Counted from the first letter of the stretch, positions 268 to 21,122 are shown. The stretch: DNA of 30,579 nt from an uncultured bacterium (GCA_937881155.1 CALGFI010000037.1:1-30579), one strand, 5' to 3'. The notes: generated by a model not told the origin, from the sequence alone. Made by a program: numbers and translations.

Positions 268-2136
268 GTGGACCCGACGTCCCACCAGGGACGCGTGCCT
301 GCGTTGGCTGCACTGCGGGAGCTCCTCGATCATCTCGGGGAGTTGCCCGAGCGTGCGCGTGAGCTCCTAGACGTCATCGGGGACGACCTCCACCGGGTCG
401 ACTCCGAGCTTCGGGAGCTCGACGCCAGGTACCGCGCCCTCGTCGAGCAGATCCCGGCGATCGTCTACGTCGACCTGGCCGACGAGTCCATGGCCACCAC
501 GTACGTGAGCCCCCAGATCGAGGCCCTCCTCGGTTTCACACAGCAGGAGTACATCGACGACCCGGAGCTCTGGACGAGACAGCTGCACCCCGACGACCGG
601 AAGCAGGCGCTCGACACGTACACCCGAGGACGGGAGGCGGGTGAACCGTTCACGTTCGAGTACCGGCTCATGTCCACCGACGGGCGACAGGTGTGGTTCC
701 GGGACAGCGCCGTCGTCATCCACGACGAGAACGGCGATCCCGCCTTCATCGAGGGCGTCATGCTCGACATCACCGACCGTAAGAACGCGGAGGAGCAGGC
801 CGCGTTCCTCGCCTATCACGACAAGCTGACCGGCCTTCCGAACAAGGCGATGTTCGAGGAGCTCCTCAGCCTCGCGATCGCGCGAGCGCGCCGCCACGAC
901 ATGGCCGTCGCGGTGATCAGCACGGATCTCGACGACTTCAAGCTCGTGAACGACAGCCTTGGTCACGAGAAGGGAGACGAGCTCATCCGTCAGCTCGCCG
1001 ACCGCCTCCGCGAGGCGACGCGAGAGACCGACCTCGTGGCCAGGCAGAGCGGCGACGAGTTCCTACTGCTCCTCGCCGACATCGACCGTTCAGGCCCGCC
1101 GGGCTCACCCGACGCCGCTGTGCTCGTCGCCGAGGGTGTGGCCGCGCGCGTTCGCGAGGCCCTCATCGCGCCGTTCGATCTCGGCGACACCGAGGTGTAT
1201 CTCAGCGCCAGCATGGGCATCGCGCTCTACCCGAACCACGCCCACGAGCCGGCCGAGCTGCTGAGGAACGCGGGCGCTGCGATGTTCCGGAGCAAACGAA
1301 ACTCGTCGGGCGGCTACTCCACCTACGCCCACGAGAACGTCGACGCGCTCGGACGGCTGTCGCTCTCGACGCTGCTGCGCAAGGCCGTCGAGCAACAACA
1401 CTGGGAGCTCCACTACCAACCGATCGTCGACCTCGCCGACGGAAAGACCATCGGCGTCGAGGCGCTGATCCGATTGAACGACCCGAACGGCGGTCTCGTG
1501 CCGCCCGGCGAGTTCATCCCGCTGGCGGAGGAGATGGGCCTGATCGAGATGATCGGTGACTGGGTCATCGAGGAGGTCGCGCGACAGGACGCCGCCTGGC
1601 GTGAGGAGGGACTCGAACTCGAGCTGTCCTTCAACCTGTCGCCGCGTCAACTGTGGCAGCCCGACGTCGCCACGCGGATCCTGACCAGGCTGGCCACGCG
1701 GGACGTCGCGGCGCCCCGAACGATCGTCGAGGTGACCGAGTCCACGGCGATGACGGATCCCGATCGCACCCTGCGGACCCTGTGGGACCTCCACGCGAAG
1801 GGCCTGCGCCTGGCGATCGACGATTTCGGCACGGGGTACTCGTCGCTGTCGCGCCTGGCGCACATGCCCGTCGACGTCTTGAAGATCGACCGTTCCTTCA
1901 TCCACGAGGTTCACGCCGACGAGCAGGCGGGCAACATGGTGAAGGCGATCATCCAGCTCGCCGAGGGTCTCGGCATGACGCCGCTCGCCGAGGGCATCGA
2001 AACGGCGCAGGAATGGCAGTTCCTCGTCGAGAACGGCTGCCGGCTCGGGCAGGGCTACTACTTCTGCAAGCCCGTCCCCGCGGCGGACGTCCTGGCGCGT
2101 CACCGTCGCGCTGGGCTACAGGTCGTCGGCGACTAG
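268..2136 (+). CDS. PAS-GGDEF-EAL c-di-GMP metabolism protein
   Basis: SD GGAG before GTG. PAS (W..QLHPDDR); DLDDFKLVNDSLGHEKGD; RETD I-site followed by SGDEF; EAL, EVTE, DDFGTGYSSL, KIDRSF, EGIE and QGY motifs all present. Confidence 0.95.
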   Translation: MDPTSHQGRVPALAALRELLDHLGELPERARELLDVIGDDLHRVDSELRELDARYRALVEQIPAIVYVDLADESMATTYVSPQIEALLGFTQQEYIDDPELWTRQLHPDDRKQALDTYTRGREAGEPFTFEYRLMSTDGRQVWFRDSAVVIHDENGDPAFIEGVMLDITDRKNAEEQAAFLAYHDKLTGLPNKAMFEELLSLAIARARRHDMAVAVISTDLDDFKLVNDSLGHEKGDELIRQLADRLREATRETDLVARQSGDEFLLLLADIDRSGPPGSPDAAVLVAEGVAARVREALIAPFDLGDTEVYLSASMGIALYPNHAHEPAELLRNAGAAMFRSKRNSSGGYSTYAHENVDALGRLSLSTLLRKAVEQQHWELHYQPIVDLADGKTIGVEALIRLNDPNGGLVPPGEFIPLAEEMGLIEMIGDWVIEEVARQDAAWREEGLELELSFNLSPRQLWQPDVATRILTRLATRDVAAPRTIVEVTESTAMTDPDRTLRTLWDLHAKGLRLAIDDFGTGYSSLSRLAHMPVDVLKIDRSFIHEVHADEQAGNMVKAIIQLAEGLGMTPLAEGIETAQEWQFLVENGCRLGQGYYFCKPVPAADVLARHRRAGLQVVGD

Positions 2137-13251: not shown

Positions 13252-14505
13252 TCAGGAGCCGGGCGAACGCGCGTCCAACCAACCACCGTCGCGTTCGTGG
13301 CGGGCGGCGACGACCCCGGCAGCGATCGACAGTGCGATCTCATCGGGTGTCCGTCCGCCGAGATCAAGGCCGACCGGCGAACGGATCCGCCCCAGCTGCT
13401 CGTCGTCGAATCCGCGTTCACGAAGCTCCGCGACATACGGCCCAACGTGGCGGCGGCTCCCCATCACCCCGATGAACCGCGCGGGTGTACGCAGAGCATC
13501 GGAGAGCGAATCGGCGATCCCCGGCGCGTCGTGATCGGTGAAGATCACGTCGGTACGAGCGTCGAGGCGAGCCTCGGCGATCGAGGAGACCACCCGTCCG
13601 CCCGCGCGATCGTCGGCTCCGACCCGCTCCGCCCGTGGTTCGACGAGGATCGTCTCGTCGCCGAGACGAGCGGCATGACGCCGAAGCGCACGCGCGACGT
13701 CGGTTGCGGAGATCACGACGAGCCTTGACGTTCGGGGAGGCGGCTCGAAGAACACGAGCACTTCGCCGCTCTCGTGTCGGTACCGGCGCGTCTGCGGTTC
13801 ACCCGTCTTCGAGATCTCGGCCGCGTCTCGCACCGCCGCGTCGTCGAACTCCGCACAACCGAGCGTGCCGTGGACCTCGCCGCCGGGGACGATTCGCATC
13901 GAGTTGCCGACCTTGCACGGCGGCGCGCCCTCGACCTCGACGGCCCGGACGTCGACCCATGCACGTTCGTCGTCGTGCGCATCATGATCTGCGTGCCCCG
14001 TGGGGTGCTCGCCGGTTCGCCCGCCGAGCAGTTCGATCGCGTGCGGAACCACGGGGAGAACGGCCTCGAGGCCTTCGCGTACCCCCTTGGGGCTCCCCGG
14101 CAGGTTCAGGACGAGCGTCGAGCCGCGGCTCCCGGCGACGGCGCGAGAGAGCGCGGCGAGCGGCGTCTGTTCGAGTCCCGTTCGCCGCATCAGCTCGGCG
14201 AGCCCGGGCGCCTCGCGATCGATGACTGCCCGTGTCGCTTCGGGCGTCACGTCGCGGGGGCCGAACCCAGTTCCACCGGTCGTGACGACGAGGGCAGTCC
14301 GGTCTCGATCGCTCAGTTCGCGAATGGCGTCCTCGATCCGCTCGCGCTCGTCCGGCACGACGACGCGCCGGACCACGTCGAGGCCGTGCTCGGCGAGCAG
14401 GGACTGCGCGACGTCGCCGGACTCGTCGGTGCGCGTGCCGTGCGATACACCGTCGGACACCGTCACGACGGCCGCGGAGCGACGCGAGCGTTGCACGCGC
14501 CTCAT
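13252..14505 (-). CDS. MogA/MoaB-like molybdopterin adenylyltransferase fused to an XdhC/CoxI-family Moco chaperone domain
   Basis: N-half: VTVSD, VVPDE, TTGGTG, RDVTPEA, LNLPGSP. His-rich linker. C-half: [36 protein letters not shown]. One continuous frame; start at 14505 is uncertain. Confidence 0.85.
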
Positions 14506-14602
14506 CCTGTCAGAAAGGTCGGCCCGGACCGTCGACGGCACCACATCGCGGCCTCGCGCGGACTAGGTTCTGGTCGATGCCGATCCGAACGAGGAGGGAC
14601 CG

Positions 14603-14872
14603 ATGGAACGGTGGATCGACGAGCTCGCCGACGCGCTCGACGCCGAACGGCTGTCGAAGGACGAGGTCGCTCGGTTGCTCGGAGTGGCGCGCGACGTCGC
14701 TCATCGCGTCGAGCGCAAGGTGACGCCCCTCGCGACGTTCGTGCTCGGAGAGGCGGTGGGCAGGAGCGTGGCGGCGGGGACGGAACGCTCCGTCGCGCTC
14801 GACCAGGTCCTCGAGACGGCGAGCTCGCTGCTGCCGACGCCGTCCGAGGCGGAGGGCTCGCCGAACGAATGA
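14603..14872 (+). CDS. DUF6457-like small protein (Moco/MobA-associated)
   Basis: Strong SD GAGGAGG. The pattern W..EL..AL / LL..ARDVAH.VER...PLATF.LG resembles DUF6457 from memory, and the Moco gene context fits. Confidence 0.7.
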   Translation: MERWIDELADALDAERLSKDEVARLLGVARDVAHRVERKVTPLATFVLGEAVGRSVAAGTERSVALDQVLETASSLLPTPSEAEGSPNE

Positions 14873-14903: not shown

Positions 14904-15929
14904 ATGAGCGTCCACCCGGCCCCGTCGGCCGCACCGTTCACCAACGAGCCGCTGCTGGATACGTTCGGCCGCGTCGCCGACGACCTACGGCTCTCGGTGA
15001 CCGACCGATGCAACTTCCGGTGCACGTACTGCATGCCGGCCGAGGGCCTGAAGTGGCTCCCGAAGGACGAGATCCTCTCGTTCGAGGAGCTGGCCCGGTT
15101 GCTGCGTCTGTTCGTCCGGCTCGGCGTCCGATCCGTCAAGGTGACCGGCGGCGAGCCGACGGTTCGCGCGGATCTTCCGTCGCTCGTGGCGATGCTTCGC
15201 GAGGCTGCGCCCGGCGTGGACATGTCGATGACGACGAACGGAGTGCTCCTCGACCGGCTGGCGCGCCCGCTGGCGGACTCGGGCCTCGACCGCGTGACGG
15301 TCTCGCTCGACTCGTTGCTCCGTCACCGGTTCGAGGAGATGACGCGGCGAGACGCGCTCGATCGCGTGCTCGCCGGGATCCGCGCGGCCGAGGACGCCGG
15401 CCTCGTGCCGATCAAGATCAACTGCGTGGTGATCGGCGGCACGAACGAGGACGAGGTCGTCGAGTTCGCTCGGTGGTCGCGCGAGCACGGGCACGCCGTT
15501 CGGTTCATCGAGTACATGCCGCTCGATGCCGAGCACGCGTGGGAGCGCGCGAAGGTCGTCCCGTCGGCGCGGATCCTCGAGGCGATCGACGCGGTGTACC
15601 CGCTCGTCGCCGATGGGCCCGATCACGAGCCCGCGACGAGCTACCGGTTCGCCGACGGCTCTGCCGGGGGGGTCGGCGTGATCGCCAGCGTCACCGAGCC
15701 GTTCTGCGACTCCTGTAACCGTCTTCGAATCACCGCCGAGGGGCAGCTGCGCGCGTGCCTGTTCGCGCTCGACGAGTCCGACCTACGAACTCCGATGCGC
15801 TCGGGCGCCGTTGACGAGGACCTCGAGGAGCTGATCCGCTCGAACGTGTGGGCGAAGTGGTCGGGGCACCGGATCAACCACCCCGACTTCGTGCAGCCCG
15901 AACGGAGCATGTCCGCGATCGGCGGCTGA
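14904..15929 (+). CDS. moaA: GTP 3',8-cyclase MoaA
   Basis: LRLSVTDRCNFRCTYCMP, TGGEP, TTNG, RFIEYMP, FCDSCNRLR...LRACLF, C-terminal IGG. Confidence 0.97.
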   Translation: MSVHPAPSAAPFTNEPLLDTFGRVADDLRLSVTDRCNFRCTYCMPAEGLKWLPKDEILSFEELARLLRLFVRLGVRSVKVTGGEPTVRADLPSLVAMLREAAPGVDMSMTTNGVLLDRLARPLADSGLDRVTVSLDSLLRHRFEEMTRRDALDRVLAGIRAAEDAGLVPIKINCVVIGGTNEDEVVEFARWSREHGHAVRFIEYMPLDAEHAWERAKVVPSARILEAIDAVYPLVADGPDHEPATSYRFADGSAGGVGVIASVTEPFCDSCNRLRITAEGQLRACLFALDESDLRTPMRSGAVDEDLEELIRSNVWAKWSGHRINHPDFVQPERSMSAIGG

Positions 15930-15945: not shown

Positions 15946-16656
15946 TCAGCCCTCCTGCACGCCCGCGAGCCGCGCGAGGCCCGAGATCTTCCGCAGCACG
16001 AAGCGCCGGCCGTCGCGCTCGACGTAGCCGCGTCGCTGGAGGTCCGAGAGGATCCGCGTGACGTTCTCCCGGCTGCCGCCGCACAGGCTCGCCAGGTCCG
16101 CGTGCGTCACCACCGAAGGAAGGACTGCGCCGTCGGGCGGGAGGTCGTCGAGCGACGGCGCCACGAGCTGCAGCAGCCGCTTGGCCACGCGTCCCTTGAG
16201 ATCGAGGAACAGCAGGTCTTCGACGAAGGCCTCGTGCGATTGCACCTGCCGCGCCAGCGCGCGGAGGATGGCCCGCGAGGCGGCCGACTCTTCCGTCACG
16301 AACTCGACGAAGGTGGGACCCTGGACCGTCCACACCGACGACTCCTCGAGCGCGAGCGCCGCGGCCGTGCGAGGCATGCCTCCGAGCACGCCGAGCTCGC
16401 CGAAGAACTGGGGACGGTCGAGCGTCGTGTGCAGCTGCCGGTGGCCGCTCGCCGAAAGGGAGCTGATCTCCACGCGGCCTTCCACGAGGAAGAAGACCTC
16501 GGGGGACTCGTCACCCTGGTGGAACAGGTACGTGTTCCGCCGGTACCTGCGGACCGAACCGCGGTCGGCGAGTCGCGCGATCGTCTCGGCCGAGGCGCCC
16601 TCGAACAGCGGGGTACTCGCCATCATCGCTTCGAGGCCCGACACGCCGACCGCCAT
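15946..16656 (-). CDS. Crp/Fnr-family transcriptional regulator (CRP-like)
   Basis: cNMP domain (LFHQGD, FGELGVL..MPRTA) and HTH THADLASLCGGSRENVTRIL. Start could be ATG 16656 (after TACGCT) or GTG 16683. Confidence 0.93.
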   Translation of the reverse strand: MAVGVSGLEAMMASTPLFEGASAETIARLADRGSVRRYRRNTYLFHQGDESPEVFFLVEGRVEISSLSASGHRQLHTTLDRPQFFGELGVLGGMPRTAAALALEESSVWTVQGPTFVEFVTEESAASRAILRALARQVQSHEAFVEDLLFLDLKGRVAKRLLQLVAPSLDDLPPDGAVLPSVVTHADLASLCGGSRENVTRILSDLQRRGYVERDGRRFVLRKISGLARLAGVQEG

Positions 16657-16705
16657 ACGGTCGTCAGCGTAGCCAGTCCGCACCTCCCCCGGGAGGCATC
16701 ACAAA

Positions 16706-16736
16706 GCAAGACCCGGGAACTCATCCCGGGTCTTGC
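16706..16736 (-). terminator. Intrinsic terminator of the small basic peptide gene
   Basis: Perfect 13-bp stem gcaagacccggga/tcccgggtcttgc with a 5-nt loop, followed by TTTGTG on the minus strand, 24 nt after the stop. Confidence 0.8.
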
Positions 16737-16760
16737 GAAACGGCGAGTGCGAACCGCGGC

Positions 16761-16889
16761 CTACTTGGCCGCCTTCCGCGCGCGCTTGGCCTTCCTCAGC
16801 CTCTTGGTCACCCGCGTCGCCGGCTCCGTCTTCGACGTCTTCGCCGTGGACTTCGTCGCCACCTTGGGAGTGATCTTCTTGTCCGCCAC
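16761..16889 (-). CDS. 42-aa Lys/Arg/Thr-rich peptide (candidate precursor or signalling peptide)
   Basis: SD GGAGGTGA-cgag-GTG at 16889. MADKKITPKVATKSTAKTSKTEPATRVTKRLRKAKRARKAAK. Codons are almost all G/C-ending (AAG, ACC, GCG), and the gene has its own promoter and terminator. Confidence 0.8.
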   Translation of the reverse strand: MADKKITPKVATKSTAKTSKTEPATRVTKRLRKAKRARKAAK

Positions 16890-16957
16890 CTCGTCACCTC
16901 CCCCGGGAGATCCGGCCCCTCCGATGAGGGGGGCTTCACCAGGAACGCTCGAGGCGC

Positions 16958-17048
16958 ATTTTGCGACGCCGAGCACGAGATCGATGTGTCGGCGGTCACC
17001 CACCCGGGCGTGACGTCGGTCACGGTTCCGATGTGACGGCCGTCACAT
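16958..17048 (-). promoter_or_regulatory. Crp-dependent promoter with three tandem Crp-like boxes
   Basis: TGTGTcggcggTCACC (16985-17000), CGTGAcgtcggTCACG (17009-17024) and a perfect TGTGAcggccgTCACA (17032-17047). Minus-strand -10-like CAAAAT at 16958-16963. Confidence 0.8.
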
Positions 17049-17261
17049 TTTCTCGTCGAGCTCCGGCAGGGAGAGCGGATCAGGCCGAGGTGTGCATGCT
17101 CCGCAGTACAGCGCGTCCTCGACGATGAGTGCCTGCGTCACATCGCCGGGCTTGAACAGATCGACCACGTACGGGAGGGTCTCCACGTGGTCGGCGCAGA
17201 TGCCTCGACCGCAGAACCGACAGCTCCCCACGGCGGTCTTCCGACAGTGCCAGCAATCCAT
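17043..17261 (-). CDS. 72-aa Cys/His-rich zinc-finger protein (DUF2180-like pattern)
   Basis: CWHC..AVGSCRFCGRGICADH..CGAC (7 Cys and 2 His); SD GAGGAGG overlapping the upstream stop codon. Confidence 0.8.
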   Translation of the reverse strand: MDCWHCRKTAVGSCRFCGRGICADHVETLPYVVDLFKPGDVTQALIVEDALYCGACTPRPDPLSLPELDEKM

Positions 17262-17275
17262 CGGGTGGTCCCTCC

Positions 17276-19444
17276 TCAGTGCTCAGCTGTGCGCTCGATC
17301 GGAGCCGCGGACACGGCGCCCCGGCGGAAGATGCCGGCTACGACTTCATCGAACCCCTCGCGGTCGAGCTCGAACACGCGCATCGGCGTTCGGGCGACCA
17401 CGGAGGCCGTGCGGGGGATGTCCATGAGCAACGCGAGCTCGCCGAAATGCTCCCCCGCGCCGAGCGACCGGATGGCCTCGTCGTCCTGGAGCACCTCCGC
17501 GCGTCCGGACCCGATCACGTAGAACGCATCTCCCTGGTCGCCCTGCTCCACGAGGACCTCATCGGGAGCGACGCTGATCCATCGACCACGACTGAGCAAC
17601 TCGGCGATCGATGCCGACCCGAGCGACGCGAACGGTGGGAGGGACCGAAGCTCCGCGGCTTGGTGAAGCGTCGGAGCGAATTCAGGAAGGTTGACGCTGT
17701 CGCTCAGTAGGCGGTCGAACGTGCTCTCGTCGATCTCGAACAGCTCGGCGTCATCGACCGGACGAACGGTCGCCGACCGCCGGGCACCGTCGACCAGGCC
17801 GAGCTCACCGAACATGTCACCTCGCTCCAGGGTTCGGATGACGTTGTCCTTGCCGGTGTTCTCGTCTTCCTCGACCACCTCGAGCTTTCCCCGTCGGACC
17901 ACGTAGAACGCATGCGGTCGATCTCCCTGTCGAAATACGGGCTTGCCGCCCGGATATCGCTTCAGCTCGACGCGTCCCGCGAGGTCGGACAGCACATCCT
18001 CCGGTAGGTCCTCGAACATCGGCGAGCTGTCGATGAGCTCGGCCGCCTCGACGCGCCACCCCGTTTGGAGCTTGAACCGCAGCGCGTCGATCCACCCCCC
18101 GATCTTCTTCGCGACTGATCGCGCGAGCTTGATGACGCCACGGATCGCAGGACCCGCAACGAACAGGGCGAGCGCCACGAGGAGGAGACGGCCGAAGACC
18201 CCGCCATCCCACAGCGAGGAGATGAGACCACCGAAGATCGTCTCCCAGAAGAAGAACGCCGTGAAGACGGACAGGACGGTGAACGCGACGCCGACGATGC
18301 CATAGAGCGCCAGCCCGACCTCCTGCTTCGTCATACGCTCACGCCGGCGCAGCTTCCGCCACAGGTCATACCGGATGAAGCGCAAGGATCGCGGACGGAG
18401 ATCCGGAACCTGGATGACGTCGGCCAGGATGAAGTAGCCGTCGAGCTCGAGCAGTGGGATGAGGTTCATGAAGATGACGAAATAGTTGATGACCGCCCAG
18501 GTGAACAGGAACGGTGAGATCGCCGCGTCCGGGAACGCCCAGATGAAGATCGCGGCGATCCCGGAGAAGATGAGCTCTGCGTATGGTCCCGCGAAGGACT
18601 GGGCGATCCGCTCCCGGCGGTCGAGCATCAGCACCTCGGACGATTCGATGAAGAAGACGGGAGACCCGAAATAGATCATGAAACCGGCGCTCTTCACCTT
18701 GCGTCCGTAGTGGACCAGGACGACGGCGTGACCGAGCTCGTGGATGAAGGTCAGGACGTAGTCCATCCCCAACAGGACGAACGTCTGGGCCGCAGCCGAT
18801 CCGCCGCCGAGCTCGAAGCGACCGCTTCGGTACACGGCCGCGAAGGCGACCAAACCGAGAGCGGCCACGATTGCCGCGGCGATCCCCAGCGCCGGCGTGA
18901 AGAAGAAGCGAACGAAGCGCCGGTACAGCCAGTCGACGAGCCGGTGCGCTCCGGCCCAGTCGACGGAGAGCGTATTGACGAACTCGCGGGTCTTCGCCCG
19001 CGCCAGCGACGCCGGGTGCGCCGCCCGGTCCACGATCTCCCGAGCGTCGACGTACCGGTCGGTGAGGAAGTTCCCCACGCGCAGCTCGCGGACGAGATCG
19101 GCAACGCCCTCCAGCTCCATGTCGCCCGATTCCTGGAACCGCTCGACGACGATCTCGCCGACGGTCCGCGTTCCGTCCATCAGCTCGAGGAGCGGAACGT
19201 CGCTCAACGACAGCTGGTAGTGCAGGAGCTCCGTCGGGTTGGCGATCATCGCGTAGTCGTTGCCCCAACGAAGCTTGAACGTCTTGACCTCGACGTCGGG
19301 TCGGAGCTGCGGGCGGTACGTGGCCGGGTCGAGCCGCTCCGACAGCCTCGACCAGATCCCGCCTTCATGGTCTTGCTCCGGGGCTCTGGCGATCGCACCA
19401 CGTACGGCCCCGAAGACGCCACGCTCGCTCAGCGCCTCGGTCAC
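17276..19444 (-). CDS. RRE(PqqD-like)-M50 intramembrane metalloprotease with two C-terminal cyclic-nucleotide-binding domains
   Basis: aa ~45-127: three predicted strands plus helices with LLELMDGTRTVGEI. HELGH at aa 235 (18728-18742), AGP, NLIPLLELDG at aa 327-336, several TM helices. CNB motifs FRQGD..FGELGL..RRSATV and VEQGD..FGELAL..PRTASV. Confidence 0.88.
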   Translation of the reverse strand: MTEALSERGVFGAVRGAIARAPEQDHEGGIWSRLSERLDPATYRPQLRPDVEVKTFKLRWGNDYAMIANPTELLHYQLSLSDVPLLELMDGTRTVGEIVVERFQESGDMELEGVADLVRELRVGNFLTDRYVDAREIVDRAAHPASLARAKTREFVNTLSVDWAGAHRLVDWLYRRFVRFFFTPALGIAAAIVAALGLVAFAAVYRSGRFELGGGSAAAQTFVLLGMDYVLTFIHELGHAVVLVHYGRKVKSAGFMIYFGSPVFFIESSEVLMLDRRERIAQSFAGPYAELIFSGIAAIFIWAFPDAAISPFLFTWAVINYFVIFMNLIPLLELDGYFILADVIQVPDLRPRSLRFIRYDLWRKLRRRERMTKQEVGLALYGIVGVAFTVLSVFTAFFFWETIFGGLISSLWDGGVFGRLLLVALALFVAGPAIRGVIKLARSVAKKIGGWIDALRFKLQTGWRVEAAELIDSSPMFEDLPEDVLSDLAGRVELKRYPGGKPVFRQGDRPHAFYVVRRGKLEVVEEDENTGKDNVIRTLERGDMFGELGLVDGARRSATVRPVDDAELFEIDESTFDRLLSDSVNLPEFAPTLHQAAELRSLPPFASLGSASIAELLSRGRWISVAPDEVLVEQGDQGDAFYVIGSGRAEVLQDDEAIRSLGAGEHFGELALLMDIPRTASVVARTPMRVFELDREGFDEVVAGIFRRGAVSAAPIERTAEH

Positions 19445-19602
19445 GGGTCCGGATCCCTTCGGGCGCGTTCTGCCTCCAGCCGCCTCCGAATCACGTCGTA
19501 GACCGACTGTCGTGGGCGCGCGCGTCGTTTCTGCGCGTACAGGTTGCCCGCCACGGCACCGACCAGGACGATCAGCGCCAACGCCGCGAGCACGCCCTCC
19601 AC
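19441..19602 (-). CDS. 53-aa single-pass membrane protein with basic tail
   Basis: TTGCAC-18-CAAGAT-6-GTG (leaderless start). TM VLAALALIVLVGAVAGNLY, then an Arg-rich tail. Its stop overlaps the protease start (GTGA). Confidence 0.65.
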   Translation of the reverse strand: MEGVLAALALIVLVGAVAGNLYAQKRRARPRQSVYDVIRRRLEAERARRDPDP

Positions 19603-19820: not shown

Positions 19821-20681
19821 TCAGGGCGACCGACCGACGAGCACGCGCGTCACCTTGAACCCGCGATCCATCGTGCTCCGTACATCACGGAACCCAGTTC
19901 GCTGCAACACGGAGCGCACGGCGCGAGCGCGATCGGGACTCACCTCGATCAGCAGCCAGCCGCCCGGACGTAGCCACGCCGGCGCCTCGGTCGTGCTCCG
20001 TTCCACGATTCGCAGTCCATCGGGACTCCGGTCGGTGAGCGTATGCGCCGGCTCCCACCGTCGGATCTCCTCGGGCAACTCGCGGAGCTCCGACCTGGCG
20101 ACATAGGGCGGGTGCAAGGTCACGACGTCTACGCCGCCGCGGAGGTGCTTCGGCAGCCCGCCGAACAGATCACCGACCACGAACGTCGCTGGGAGGCGGA
20201 GCTTGCGCGCATTTGCCCGTGCGACCCGGATCGCTTCGGGGGAGATGTCGGTGCCGTAGACGCGGGCGCGCCGAACCTCGTTCACAACGGCCAGCGCGAT
20301 GCCCCCTCCGCCGGTCGCAACGTCCACGAGCACCGGTTGTCTCCTGCGACGCACCCGTCGAACGGCCTGCTCTGCGAGGAACTCCGTCGAGTCGCGTGGG
20401 ACGAACACGCCCGGCCGAGCGAGGACTTCCAAACCACGGAAGATCGCGTACCCCTTGATCAGCTGGACCGGCTCGCCCTTCGCGCGACGCTCGATCATCC
20501 GCTCGAAGCGACGCCGGGCGCCCGGGGAGACCTCGGTGTCGCGGTCGAAGTCCTCAGTACCGATCGCGTGCCCGAGCAGGTCTTCGGCCTCGATGAGCTC
20601 GCGATCTCGTTGCCAGTGATCGATCGCCGGGGAAGCCTTGAGTGTCTTGACGGCCTCGTCGACGAGATCCCCGGCGTTCAC
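19821..20681 (-). CDS. HemK/PrmC-like SAM-dependent methyltransferase (HPPY variant)
   Basis: RRAKGEPVQLIKG, GVFVPRDSTE, VDVATGGGGIAL, TDIS, GDLF, HPPY, EP..L..DG. TAGGTT lies 8 nt before GTG 20681. No prfA nearby, so the prmC symbol is withheld. Confidence 0.85.
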   Translation of the reverse strand: MNAGDLVDEAVKTLKASPAIDHWQRDRELIEAEDLLGHAIGTEDFDRDTEVSPGARRRFERMIERRAKGEPVQLIKGYAIFRGLEVLARPGVFVPRDSTEFLAEQAVRRVRRRRQPVLVDVATGGGGIALAVVNEVRRARVYGTDISPEAIRVARANARKLRLPATFVVGDLFGGLPKHLRGGVDVVTLHPPYVARSELRELPEEIRRWEPAHTLTDRSPDGLRIVERSTTEAPAWLRPGGWLLIEVSPDRARAVRSVLQRTGFRDVRSTMDRGFKVTRVLVGRSP

Positions 20682-20756
20682 GGGCGTGCAACCTACCAGG
20701 CGGTCTGCGGGATCCGCGGACGGGGTCAGTGGCTCGTCGCGTGCGACAATCGCCTG

Positions 20757-21122
20757 GTGAGCGCGGCGCCGAAACACAAGCCGAAAGCGCGAGGAAAGCG
20801 GACCCCCAAGGAAGAGGTCCGGCTCACCGGCGACCGGATCGTCGTCGAGAACCCGGAGGACGGCGAACGCAAGACGCGGGCCGGGCTGCTCATCCCGGCC
20901 ACGGCGGCGCCCGCGCCGAAGCGTTGCGTCTGGGGCGAGGTCGCGCTCGTTGGTCCTGACGTCCGCGCCGTTCGTGCCGGCGACCGCATCCTCTACCTGC
21001 CGCAGGCCGGTCTGGAGGTCGAGCTCGATGGGCGCGAGTACCTGCTCCTGCGCGAGCGCGATGTCCAGGCGATCGCGTCTCCCGCGAACGGCCGGGAGGC
21101 GCAACCGGGCCAGTACCTGTAG
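20757..21122 (+). CDS. GroES-like co-chaperonin paralogue (actinobacterial stand-alone type)
   Basis: GDRIVV, ERKTRAGLLIPATA, VGPDV..V..GDRILY, YLLLRERDV, C-terminal GQYL. GACAAT lies 6 nt before the GTG. Confidence 0.85.
   Translation: MSAAPKHKPKARGKRTPKEEVRLTGDRIVVENPEDGERKTRAGLLIPATAAPAPKRCVWGEVALVGPDVRAVRAGDRILYLPQAGLEVELDGREYLLLRERDVQAIASPANGREAQPGQYL

Follow-up and report, generated by a model that had tools for sequence, protein, structure and literature searches.

The stretch of DNA analyzed here is contig C37 (GCA_937881155.1, CALGFI010000037.1:1-30579), which forms part of a metagenome-assembled genome, 67% complete and with a GC content of about 68%, of an uncultured soil actinobacterium; the full 30,579 nucleotides are referred to below as the window. 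The subject is a group of five co-oriented genes on its minus strand, at positions 15946-19602, that encode a Crp-family regulator, a short basic peptide, a zinc finger, a membrane metalloprotease with two cyclic nucleoside monophosphate (cNMP)-binding domains, and a small transmembrane (TM) protein. A first-pass annotation had proposed these genes as a new, cyclic-nucleotide-controlled module for peptide processing, and open reading frame (ORF) calling recovered all five in place and orientation. The features of the locus, including a domain that resembles the recognition element (RRE) of ribosomally made, post-translationally modified peptide (RiPP) pathways, are as follows.

15946-16683, minus strand: Crp-family regulator with a cNMP-binding domain and a Crp-type winged helix-turn-helix (Pfam), a paralogue syntenic with the module
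16706-16736, minus strand: terminator-like hairpin 3' of the peptide gene (13-bp stem with 9 GC pairs, then TTTGTG)
16761-16889, minus strand: gene for a 42-aa highly basic peptide (GTG start, GGAGG 7 nt upstream, conserved motifs)
16958-16963, no strand assigned: -10-like hexamer CAAAAT, at a fixed offset from the proximal box
16986-17046, no strand assigned: array of three Crp-type boxes, GTGA-N6-TCAC, with centres 23-24 bp apart (pattern search)
17043-17261, minus strand: 72-aa DUF2180-type two-zinc finger (alignment, AlphaFold2 model, fold neighbours)
17276-19444, minus strand: 722-aa polytopic membrane metalloprotease with a predicted RRE-like domain, an M50 core and two cNMP-binding domains (Pfam, NCBIfam, alignment)
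17330-18037, minus strand: tandem cNMP-binding domains of the protease, about residues 470-585 and 590-705 (two matches to Pfam PF00027)
18110-18922, minus strand: M50 core of the protease, about residues 175-445, with some six hydrophobic segments and HELGH at 18728-18742 (invariant motifs, NF041824)
19040-19327, minus strand: predicted N-terminal PqqD/RRE-like domain of the protease, about residues 40-135 (AlphaFold2 model and PDB fold matches)
19441-19602, minus strand: TM ORF of 53 aa (up to 19665, 74 aa), with a TM helix and a basic cytoplasmic tail (ORF; matches the C-termini of longer relatives)

The genes are tightly packed. The stop codon of the TM ORF and the start codon of the protease overlap by 4 nt (GTGA), and the TGA of the protease directly abuts the sequence GGAGGG, with the ATG of the zinc finger 8 nt further on, so that both the overlap and the abutting Shine-Dalgarno sequence of the initial description were found. 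The count of three cNMP-binding domains was likewise reproduced, since Pfam PF00027 matches twice in the protease and once in the Crp protein. The evidence shows a module that is predicted to read cyclic nucleotides at two or three points.

Conservation of the module

The module is a vertically inherited, conserved and so far unstudied unit of a clade of uncultured soil Actinomycetota. Matches to the full-length protease come from more than 1400 protein clusters, nearly all of them from uncultured Actinomycetota and annotated by domain only, and 375 species-level genomes contain a relative. The protease is single-copy in 32 of 41 relatives (a tally that includes the unpublished genome G029), and its identity drops from 61-92% within the genus to 48-58% at the family and order levels, which argues for vertical descent. 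A census was conducted on 80 species-level loci, with boxes, Crp and peptide counted in the 69 that extend at least 1.5 kb downstream. All 79 testable loci have the finger downstream of the protease, at a distance of 5-55 nt (once 596 nt). A Crp protein of more than 50% identity was found in 66 of 69, at least two Crp-type boxes in 65 of 69, and the peptide, searched with a strict pattern, in at least 52 of 69, the misses including loci with a variant N-terminus, for example L039 and L054. Manual inspection of 20 loci of the same taxonomic order showed that the arrangement TM protein, protease, finger, peptide, Crp is retained. The neighbourhood conservation on which the first-pass annotation hinged is thus borne out in this clade, but the Crp protein and the peptide, recognizable by its KKI-x-PK motif, are limited to part of the protease family. 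Other protease lineages have an extracytoplasmic function (ECF) sigma/anti-sigma pair or a winged-helix protein in place of Crp and peptide.

Five genomes of the same order lack the protease. The finger is also missing from all of them, as is the peptide, and four have no close Crp orthologue; G018 has a Crp protein of 55% identity beside rplS/trmD, without the peptide and without a box array. This retention of Crp without the rest, and the absence of the Crp orthologue and of this peptide type from more distant protease lineages, are what could be expected if the protease-finger and Crp-peptide pairs were independent neighbours that share synteny but no function. However, order and spacing are retained in 65-66 of 69 loci from several families, the components are jointly lost in four of five genomes, the first box overlaps the stop codon of the finger, and all three proteins appear to read the same ligand class. 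Pure coincidence of synteny is unlikely, and functional independence of the two pairs appears very improbable.

The invariant core of the module is the protease together with the DUF2180-type zinc finger. In a sample of 401 genomes of the phylum, 39 encode the full-length protease and 41 the finger, and 38 of the 39 have both, always adjacent (this tally includes the unpublished genomes G029, G041 and G154, on which no conclusion rests); in the sole protease genome without a finger, the contig ends at this point. No finger was found near M50 homologues that possess the N-terminal region but lack the cNMP-binding domains. Conservation is higher for the finger (61-92% identity) than for the protease (37-92%), and the finger family is small, with 175 clusters among 1.84 billion representatives. 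The zinc ligands C3, C6, C14, C17, C22, H25, C53 and C56 are conserved in alignment A2, as is a C-terminal tail of the type P-R-P-D-P-x-x-L-P-E-L-D. The AlphaFold2 model has a predicted local distance difference test (pLDDT) score of 92.9, the tail being less confident and flexible. A sequence search of the PDB returned nothing and Foldseek retrieved no PDB match at an E-value of 0.001 or below; neighbours in the AlphaFold database and clusters in the Atlas are DUF2180 and B-box-like proteins. Pfam DUF2180 (PF09947) matches the finger with 21.1 bits, for a cut-off of 22.2, covering only the first 26 residues. One genome, G173, was found to contain two copies of the protease and three of the finger.

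Domains of the protease

The assignment of the 722-aa protein as an M50 protease with two cNMP-binding domains was corroborated. Pfam identifies cNMP_binding twice (E 3e-42) and Peptidase_M50 (PF02163) with 36.8 bits against a cut-off of 27.2. The motifs HELGH and NLIPLLELDG, which mark the protein as a member of M50, are invariant among nine diverse orthologues (alignment A1, identity down to 48%), and this applies to residues H235, E236, H239, N327, P330, D335 and G336. The best NCBIfam model, and thus the closest named family, is that of the RRE-M50 peptidase of daptide clusters, NF041824 (daptide_HExxH), which aligns residues 62-443 to model positions 15-378 of 379 with an E-value of 5e-46. 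Its score of 157 bits lies below the cut-off of 300 bits, so that the protein is not classed as a daptide protease equivalog. The same holds for the second match, NF058609 (YydH/LiaK; E 2e-12), with 47 bits for a cut-off of 225. The only radical SAM gene near the protease in the window is that of MoaA.

In the same nine orthologues both cNMP pockets have invariant F-G-E and R-S/T-A motifs, as expected of cyclic-nucleotide-binding domains, and the best PDB matches of the tandem region are the regulatory tandem domains of protein kinases G (PKG) and A (PKA), with E-values of 1e-44. The N-terminal domain had been described as RRE-like. Its approximately 100 N-terminal residues were modeled with AlphaFold2 from 21 homologues (model m0bc719273151), giving three strands followed by three helices, and the top fold matches in the PDB are TbiB1 with its leader peptide (5v1u), PqqD (5sxy) and the lasso peptide protein B1 (6jx3), with TM scores, normalized by target, of 0.60-0.66. 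At the sequence level the support is weak: Pfam PqqD (PF05402) matches 2 of the 21 homologues (best E 1e-4), the window protein not being one of them, and hhalign gives an E-value of 0.02. A PqqD/RRE fold, known from leader peptide docking, is thus supported by the model for this domain, and the binding of a peptide is predicted. As some six hydrophobic segments separate the predicted RRE from the cNMP-binding domains, both termini should lie on the same side of the membrane, probably in the cytoplasm, where the peptide and the finger, both devoid of a signal sequence, should also be located.

The basic peptide, its operator array and the Crp paralogue

The N-terminal part of the peptide carries the motifs A-D/E-K-K-I-T/S-P-K and A-T-R-V-T-K, which are conserved in 22 loci with synonymous codon variation, and nearly all codons of the gene end in G or C. 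The C-terminal tail is cationic and changes fast, often consisting of short repeats (KAVRAT, RVK, KVQ, KKL/KKM, KRQT or APRK). Given the retained N-terminal part and the divergent tail, the peptide has the layout of a conserved leader and a variable core, and the tail looks more like a binder of nucleic acids or polyanions than like a pore former. A longer ORF of 80 aa, extending to 17003, was rejected as the peptide gene, because conservation is confined to the 42-aa part. An Rfam scan of the whole window returned zero RNA families, and the region is hence no known RNA. In some genomes the gene is tandemly duplicated (L046:4298-4612, L167:4535-4876 and L169:7207-7551).

The peptide gene had been reported to carry three Crp boxes, two of which were found to be exact and one to contain a mismatch. 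The 30.6-kb window contains two exact copies of GTGA-N6-TCAC, for 0.56 expected, and both are located in the 37 bp at 17010-17046; the box with one mismatch is at 16986-16999. The stop codon of the finger overlaps the first box. Orthologous loci have 2-5 tandem boxes 5' of the peptide gene, with a centre spacing of 23-24 bp, and two boxes at that spacing occur at the module locus only in the genomes G000, G003 (a closed genome of 3.5 Mb), G005 and G010, the reversed control giving zero; the tandem array is thus unique in each of these four genomes. In 13 of 20 loci, a -10-like hexamer, (A/C/T)-A-N-N-N-T, begins 22-23 nt past the proximal box; it reads CAAAAT in the window, where the peptide mRNA is predicted to start about 7 nt beyond it. 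This fixed offset would place the centre of the proximal box at -41.5, the position of a class II activator. On the other side of the gene, a strong hairpin 3' of the peptide stop codon was detected in 21 of 22 orthologous loci, with stem sequences that are not conserved; in the window, the hairpin at 16706-16736 is the sole terminator-like site found between 15900 and 19900. No Crp box was found upstream of the TM-protease operon in the window. In G003, single boxes of the type GTGAC-N4-GTCAC are present at C1:596545-596558 and 3290582-3290595; one is close to the beginning of the TM-protease operon and the other precedes a further Crp paralogue by about 200 nt. The entire genome has 11 such boxes, for 1 in the reversed control.

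The regulator is a member of the Crp/Fnr family, as evidenced by matches to PF00027 (E 1e-20), PF13545 (HTH_Crp_2, E 7e-15) and PF00325. Its pocket reads FGELG...RTA and its recognition helix R-E-N-V-T-R, that is, R-E-x-x-x-R. With 84 bits for a cut-off of 266 in NF008732, it is no CRP equivalog. It was also rejected as the GlxR/Rv3676 orthologue, as it scores 94 bits against the structures of GlxR and Mycobacterium tuberculosis Crp and another paralogue is closer to these. Orthologues in the same position of related loci share 55-98% identity, and from this synteny we infer that the module Crp paralogue binds the boxes. Class III adenylate/guanylate cyclase domains were matched 22 times in G003, 27 times in G005 and 53 times in G010, three genomes of the same genus with sizes of 2.9-3.5 Mb. 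Such numbers correspond to a very large repertoire for cNMP synthesis.

Sister lineages and distant zinc fingers

In the protease lineage f18, the gene that follows the finger encodes a RiPP-type precursor of the NHLP clan (L176:6759-7238 and L174:7415-7744), with 57 and 46 bits in NF038399, for a cut-off of 40, and additional matches to PF14407. After the precursor domain these proteins continue into Lys-rich repeats similar to histone H1. In the f18 loci L173 and L178, short K/A-rich ORFs occupy the slot after the finger. One distant homologue of the finger is directly followed by a PF14407 peptide and another one is located near such a peptide. The f18 protease is directly preceded by an ECF sigma factor gene and one for a soluble ZAS-like protein (L174:3900-4901, L176:3356-4337 and L175:145-1036). 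In its C-terminal half, the ZAS-like protein is similar to the NHLP/Os1348 leader domain, with an E-value of 3e-5 that does not reach the cut-off. This is a hint that more than one client may offer the RRE a leader-like handle.

These observations raise the question of whether the locus is a true RiPP cluster. In that case an unrecognized maturase, possibly the finger or one encoded elsewhere, would act on the peptide, and the M50 protease would take off the leader and export a cationic antimicrobial. The closest named families of the protease are RiPP peptidases, NHLP-clan precursors exist in sister lineages, one distant locus adjoins a radical SAM/SPASM gene, and for the M50 enzyme EpeP a dual role in cleavage and export has been proposed (PMC10885120). 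A protease and a candidate precursor occur at the locus, but a modifying enzyme was found neither in the window nor in related loci, in agreement with the initial remark that the operon contains none, and in none of approximately 100 loci of the clade was a maturase, a transporter or an immunity gene detected. Furthermore, the protease gene is single-copy and follows taxonomy, unlike mobile biosynthetic gene clusters, and the peptide tail has few hydrophobic residues. A RiPP cluster in the strict sense is therefore considered very unlikely.

Distant members of the finger family retain the zinc ligands and mostly the tail, and they occur in several contexts. One is located directly 3' of a PrsW-family intramembrane protease and 5' of a small winged-helix protein; a second forms part of a series of PrsW, cNMP-binding protein, ParA-like ATPase, finger and a 122-aa protein, with an adjoining class III cyclase; a third lies 3' of a protein with FHA, zincin-like TM and two cNMP-binding domains and 5' of a cyclase-AAA-TPR protein; and another adjoins a plain M50 protease. 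Two further look-ups gave an uninformative or different context. The cNMP sensors in these contexts are either part of a fusion or encoded separately, and a class III cyclase is often close by. One PrsW-finger locus is adjoined by a gene for a GGDEF-EAL-PAS-GAF protein (L184:7449-10925, minus strand), and some versions of the finger module may hence be tied to c-di-GMP rather than to cyclic AMP (cAMP) or cyclic GMP (cGMP).

The finger itself could be the substrate or an antagonist. It would restrain either the protease or a DNA-binding protein, which is Crp at this locus and a sigma factor or winged-helix protein in other lineages, until cleavage of the finger's tail, triggered by a cyclic nucleotide, frees the output. 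It is the only invariant partner of the protease and the better conserved of the two, its tail is preserved in both M50 and PrsW contexts and flexible in the model, a DNA-binding protein is always nearby, and M50 enzymes of the TglG type trim C-termini (PMC10885120). On the other hand, the finger shows no similarity to known anti-sigma or anti-activator folds, and a role as substrate accounts neither for the RRE nor for the leader-type peptides encoded after it in three independent lineages. This possibility is regarded as quite unlikely.

The upstream membrane-anchored protein

The small TM protein of the first-pass annotation is real and conserved, but the 53-aa ORF is a truncated remnant of a membrane-anchored protein of about 250 aa. 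Full-length versions of the gene are present in approximately 45 related loci and encode 200-270 aa, with a signal peptide, an extracytoplasmic domain that is not matched in Pfam, and a C-terminal TM helix with a basic tail. The tail is conserved as S-V-Y..I..R-R-L..E-R, the ORF of the window reading S-V-Y..I-R-R-R-L-E-A-E-R, and the latter matches the C-termini of L043:4243-5004 and L054:4195-4998. In the window and the two closest relatives only the last 43-53 residues are left, directly after the PrmC-like gene, from which a deletion of about 3 kb can be deduced; in other loci this stretch includes an S9 peptidase gene as well. An S9 peptidase (prolyl oligopeptidase/DPP-type) is encoded upstream of the membrane-anchored protein in L043 (1976-3913) and about 30 other loci. 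It was rejected as a module member, since its distance is variable and it is absent from the window, together with most of the upstream gene.

Site-2 proteases normally cleave anti-sigma factors. In a scheme of classical regulated proteolysis, the client of the M50 enzyme could be the upstream bitopic protein or the anti-sigma factor of sister lineages, with the finger as an adaptor or released factor and with peptide and Crp as a co-regulated output instead of a substrate. The upstream gene overlaps the start of the protease gene and its TM helix and tail are conserved in most loci; f18 has an ECF sigma factor and a ZAS-like anti-sigma factor directly upstream of the protease; and the finger pairs with PrsW, which belongs to the family of the site-1 protease of RsiW. 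However, the upstream protein has an N-out/C-in orientation, opposite to that of usual site-2 protease clients, and it has been cut down to 53 aa here, with the rest of the module intact. The anti-sigma candidates of f18 show no TM segment and carry an NHLP-like domain, which fits docking to the RRE, and the RRE fold itself points to recognition of leader-type peptides. Regulated proteolysis of this kind is considered rather unlikely.

A cyclic-nucleotide-gated protease as the proposed mechanism

Taken together, the module looks like an unstudied route from a cAMP or cGMP signal to the cleavage of a peptide or protein. The favoured explanation is that a cyclic nucleotide switches on the peptide gene via the Crp paralogue and also gates the RRE-guided cleavage of the peptide by the M50 protease, with the finger as an obligatory subunit or co-client; its probability is estimated at about 50%. 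In this scheme, a subset of the 20-50 class III cyclase domains encoded per genome would produce cAMP or cGMP. The nucleotide would load the Crp paralogue, which would activate the peptide promoter. The same nucleotide would bind to the tandem sensors of the protease and relieve autoinhibition. The RRE would then dock the conserved N-terminal part of the peptide as a leader, and the M50 site would cut near the junction of leader and tail, so that the cationic tail is either freed or destroyed. The zinc finger would serve as an obligatory regulatory subunit or as a second client, its conserved disordered tail being a likely docking or cleavage motif. The feed-forward aspect, in which a single signal induces the peptide and gates the protease, is plausible but unproven. 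The peptide-processing idea of the first-pass annotation gains from the NHLP-clan precursors in the same slot of sister lineages, but it had given no role to the finger, the only invariant partner.

Several points weigh against this explanation. The peptide of the window has no match in Pfam, NCBIfam or leader families, nor a modifying enzyme or transporter within the cluster. The RRE model is of moderate confidence (pLDDT 72; Foldseek E-values of 0.006-0.05), and the domain is retained in protease lineages without this peptide type. Conversely, the PrsW proteases that pair with the finger have no RRE, which suggests that the key client may be the finger and not the peptide. The module Crp is one among at least three paralogues, and another of them could bind the boxes; cAMP and cGMP cannot be distinguished as the ligand of the protease by its sequence; and of the 16 sequencing runs listed with the locus, 15 are DNA or unclassified, the remaining one being a possible RNA run with 6% of words.

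A more general proposal, put forward tentatively and with somewhat less confidence, is that DUF2180 fingers, membrane metalloproteases of at least two unrelated families (M50 and PrsW) and cNMP sensors form an unrecognized pathway from second messengers to proteolysis. The nucleotide would directly gate the cleavage of leader-tagged clients, either peptides with cationic repeats or anti-sigma factors that carry NHLP-like handles, and the finger would be the universal transducer.

The known outputs of bacterial cyclic nucleotides comprise transcription factors and channels, together with an acetyltransferase and a small number of enzymes. If the proposed mechanism is correct, irreversible proteolysis would join this list, a first function would be available for DUF2180 zinc fingers, and RiPP-type leader recognition, by means of the RRE and NHLP-like handles, would have been reused for signaling. 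The module is common, in soil actinobacteria that are abundant but uncultured, and as a small system of five genes it is suited to reconstitution.

Other genes of the window

The neighbours of the module encode MoaA and a MogA-type/XdhC fusion, both for molybdenum cofactor biosynthesis, a PrmC-like methyltransferase and a UPF0047 protein. The fusion is a single ORF (13252-14544, minus strand) with MoCF_biosynth (MogA/MoaB-type), XdhC_CoxI and XdhC_C domains, and it adjoins DUF6457 (14603-14872) and MoaA (14904-15929). The longest PrmC-like ORF (19821-21104, minus strand) has 427 aa, and its methyltransferase match starts only near residue 167. An ORF on the plus strand with a GroES/Cpn10-like end (20800-21122; …RIVVENPEDGERKTRAGLLIP…) overlaps its 5' extension, and the PrmC-like gene therefore probably starts well inside the longest ORF. 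A PAS-GGDEF-EAL protein is encoded at 268-2136 (plus strand), about 14 kb from the module, and no link between the two was seen.

Comparison with known systems

In line with the first-pass annotation, which knew of no described system of this composition, literature searches for M50 proteases with cNMP-binding domains, for DUF2180 and for the daptide metalloprotease retrieved no description of this architecture or of a cNMP-fused M50 enzyme, and no work on DUF2180. To our knowledge, there is also no described cNMP effector with a protease as output and no described protease that is gated by cAMP or cGMP. The closest named family, that of the daptide protease MpaP/DapP (NF041824), also has an N-terminal RRE-like domain fused to an HExxH M50 core, as predicted for the protein of the window. 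In contrast, the locus of the window is devoid of tailoring genes, its peptide is unlike daptide precursors, and its protease has two added cNMP-binding domains and an obligatory DUF2180-type partner.

EpeP/YydH-LiaK and TglG/TmoG are, like the protease studied here, membrane M50 enzymes, and they act on small RiPP peptides at the cytoplasmic face (PMC10885120). They have neither cNMP sensors nor a zinc-finger partner, whereas the locus of the window has neither the radical SAM epimerase nor the scaffold-peptide chemistry of these pathways. The precursor genes in the same slot of sister lineages belong to the NHLP clan (NF038399, Os1348; PF14407, Frankia_peptide). Within this clan, the putative precursor Os1348 has been connected with antibiotic activity (PMC7726476). 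The peptide of the window differs, in that its short N-terminal part is unrelated and it matches neither of the two models.

Site-2 proteases such as RseP, RasP, Rip1 and SpoIVFB also combine a membrane M50 catalytic core with an accessory regulatory domain, which is PDZ in RseP and CBS in SpoIVFB, but a tandem cNMP module plus a predicted RRE fold in the protein of the window. The sigma/anti-sigma linkage in sister lineages is a further parallel to site-2 protease signaling, although neither a site-1 protease nor a type II TM client is evident at the window locus. As to the regulator, GlxR and M. tuberculosis Crp share with it the R-E-x-x-x-R helix and TGTGA-type boxes, the module Crp being a paralogue of only about 30% identity. 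Finally, the regulatory subunit of PKA and PKG possess, like the protease, tandem cyclic-nucleotide-binding domains with intact phosphate-binding cassettes; what sets the protein of the window apart from these tandem-domain effectors is that its output domain is a protease.

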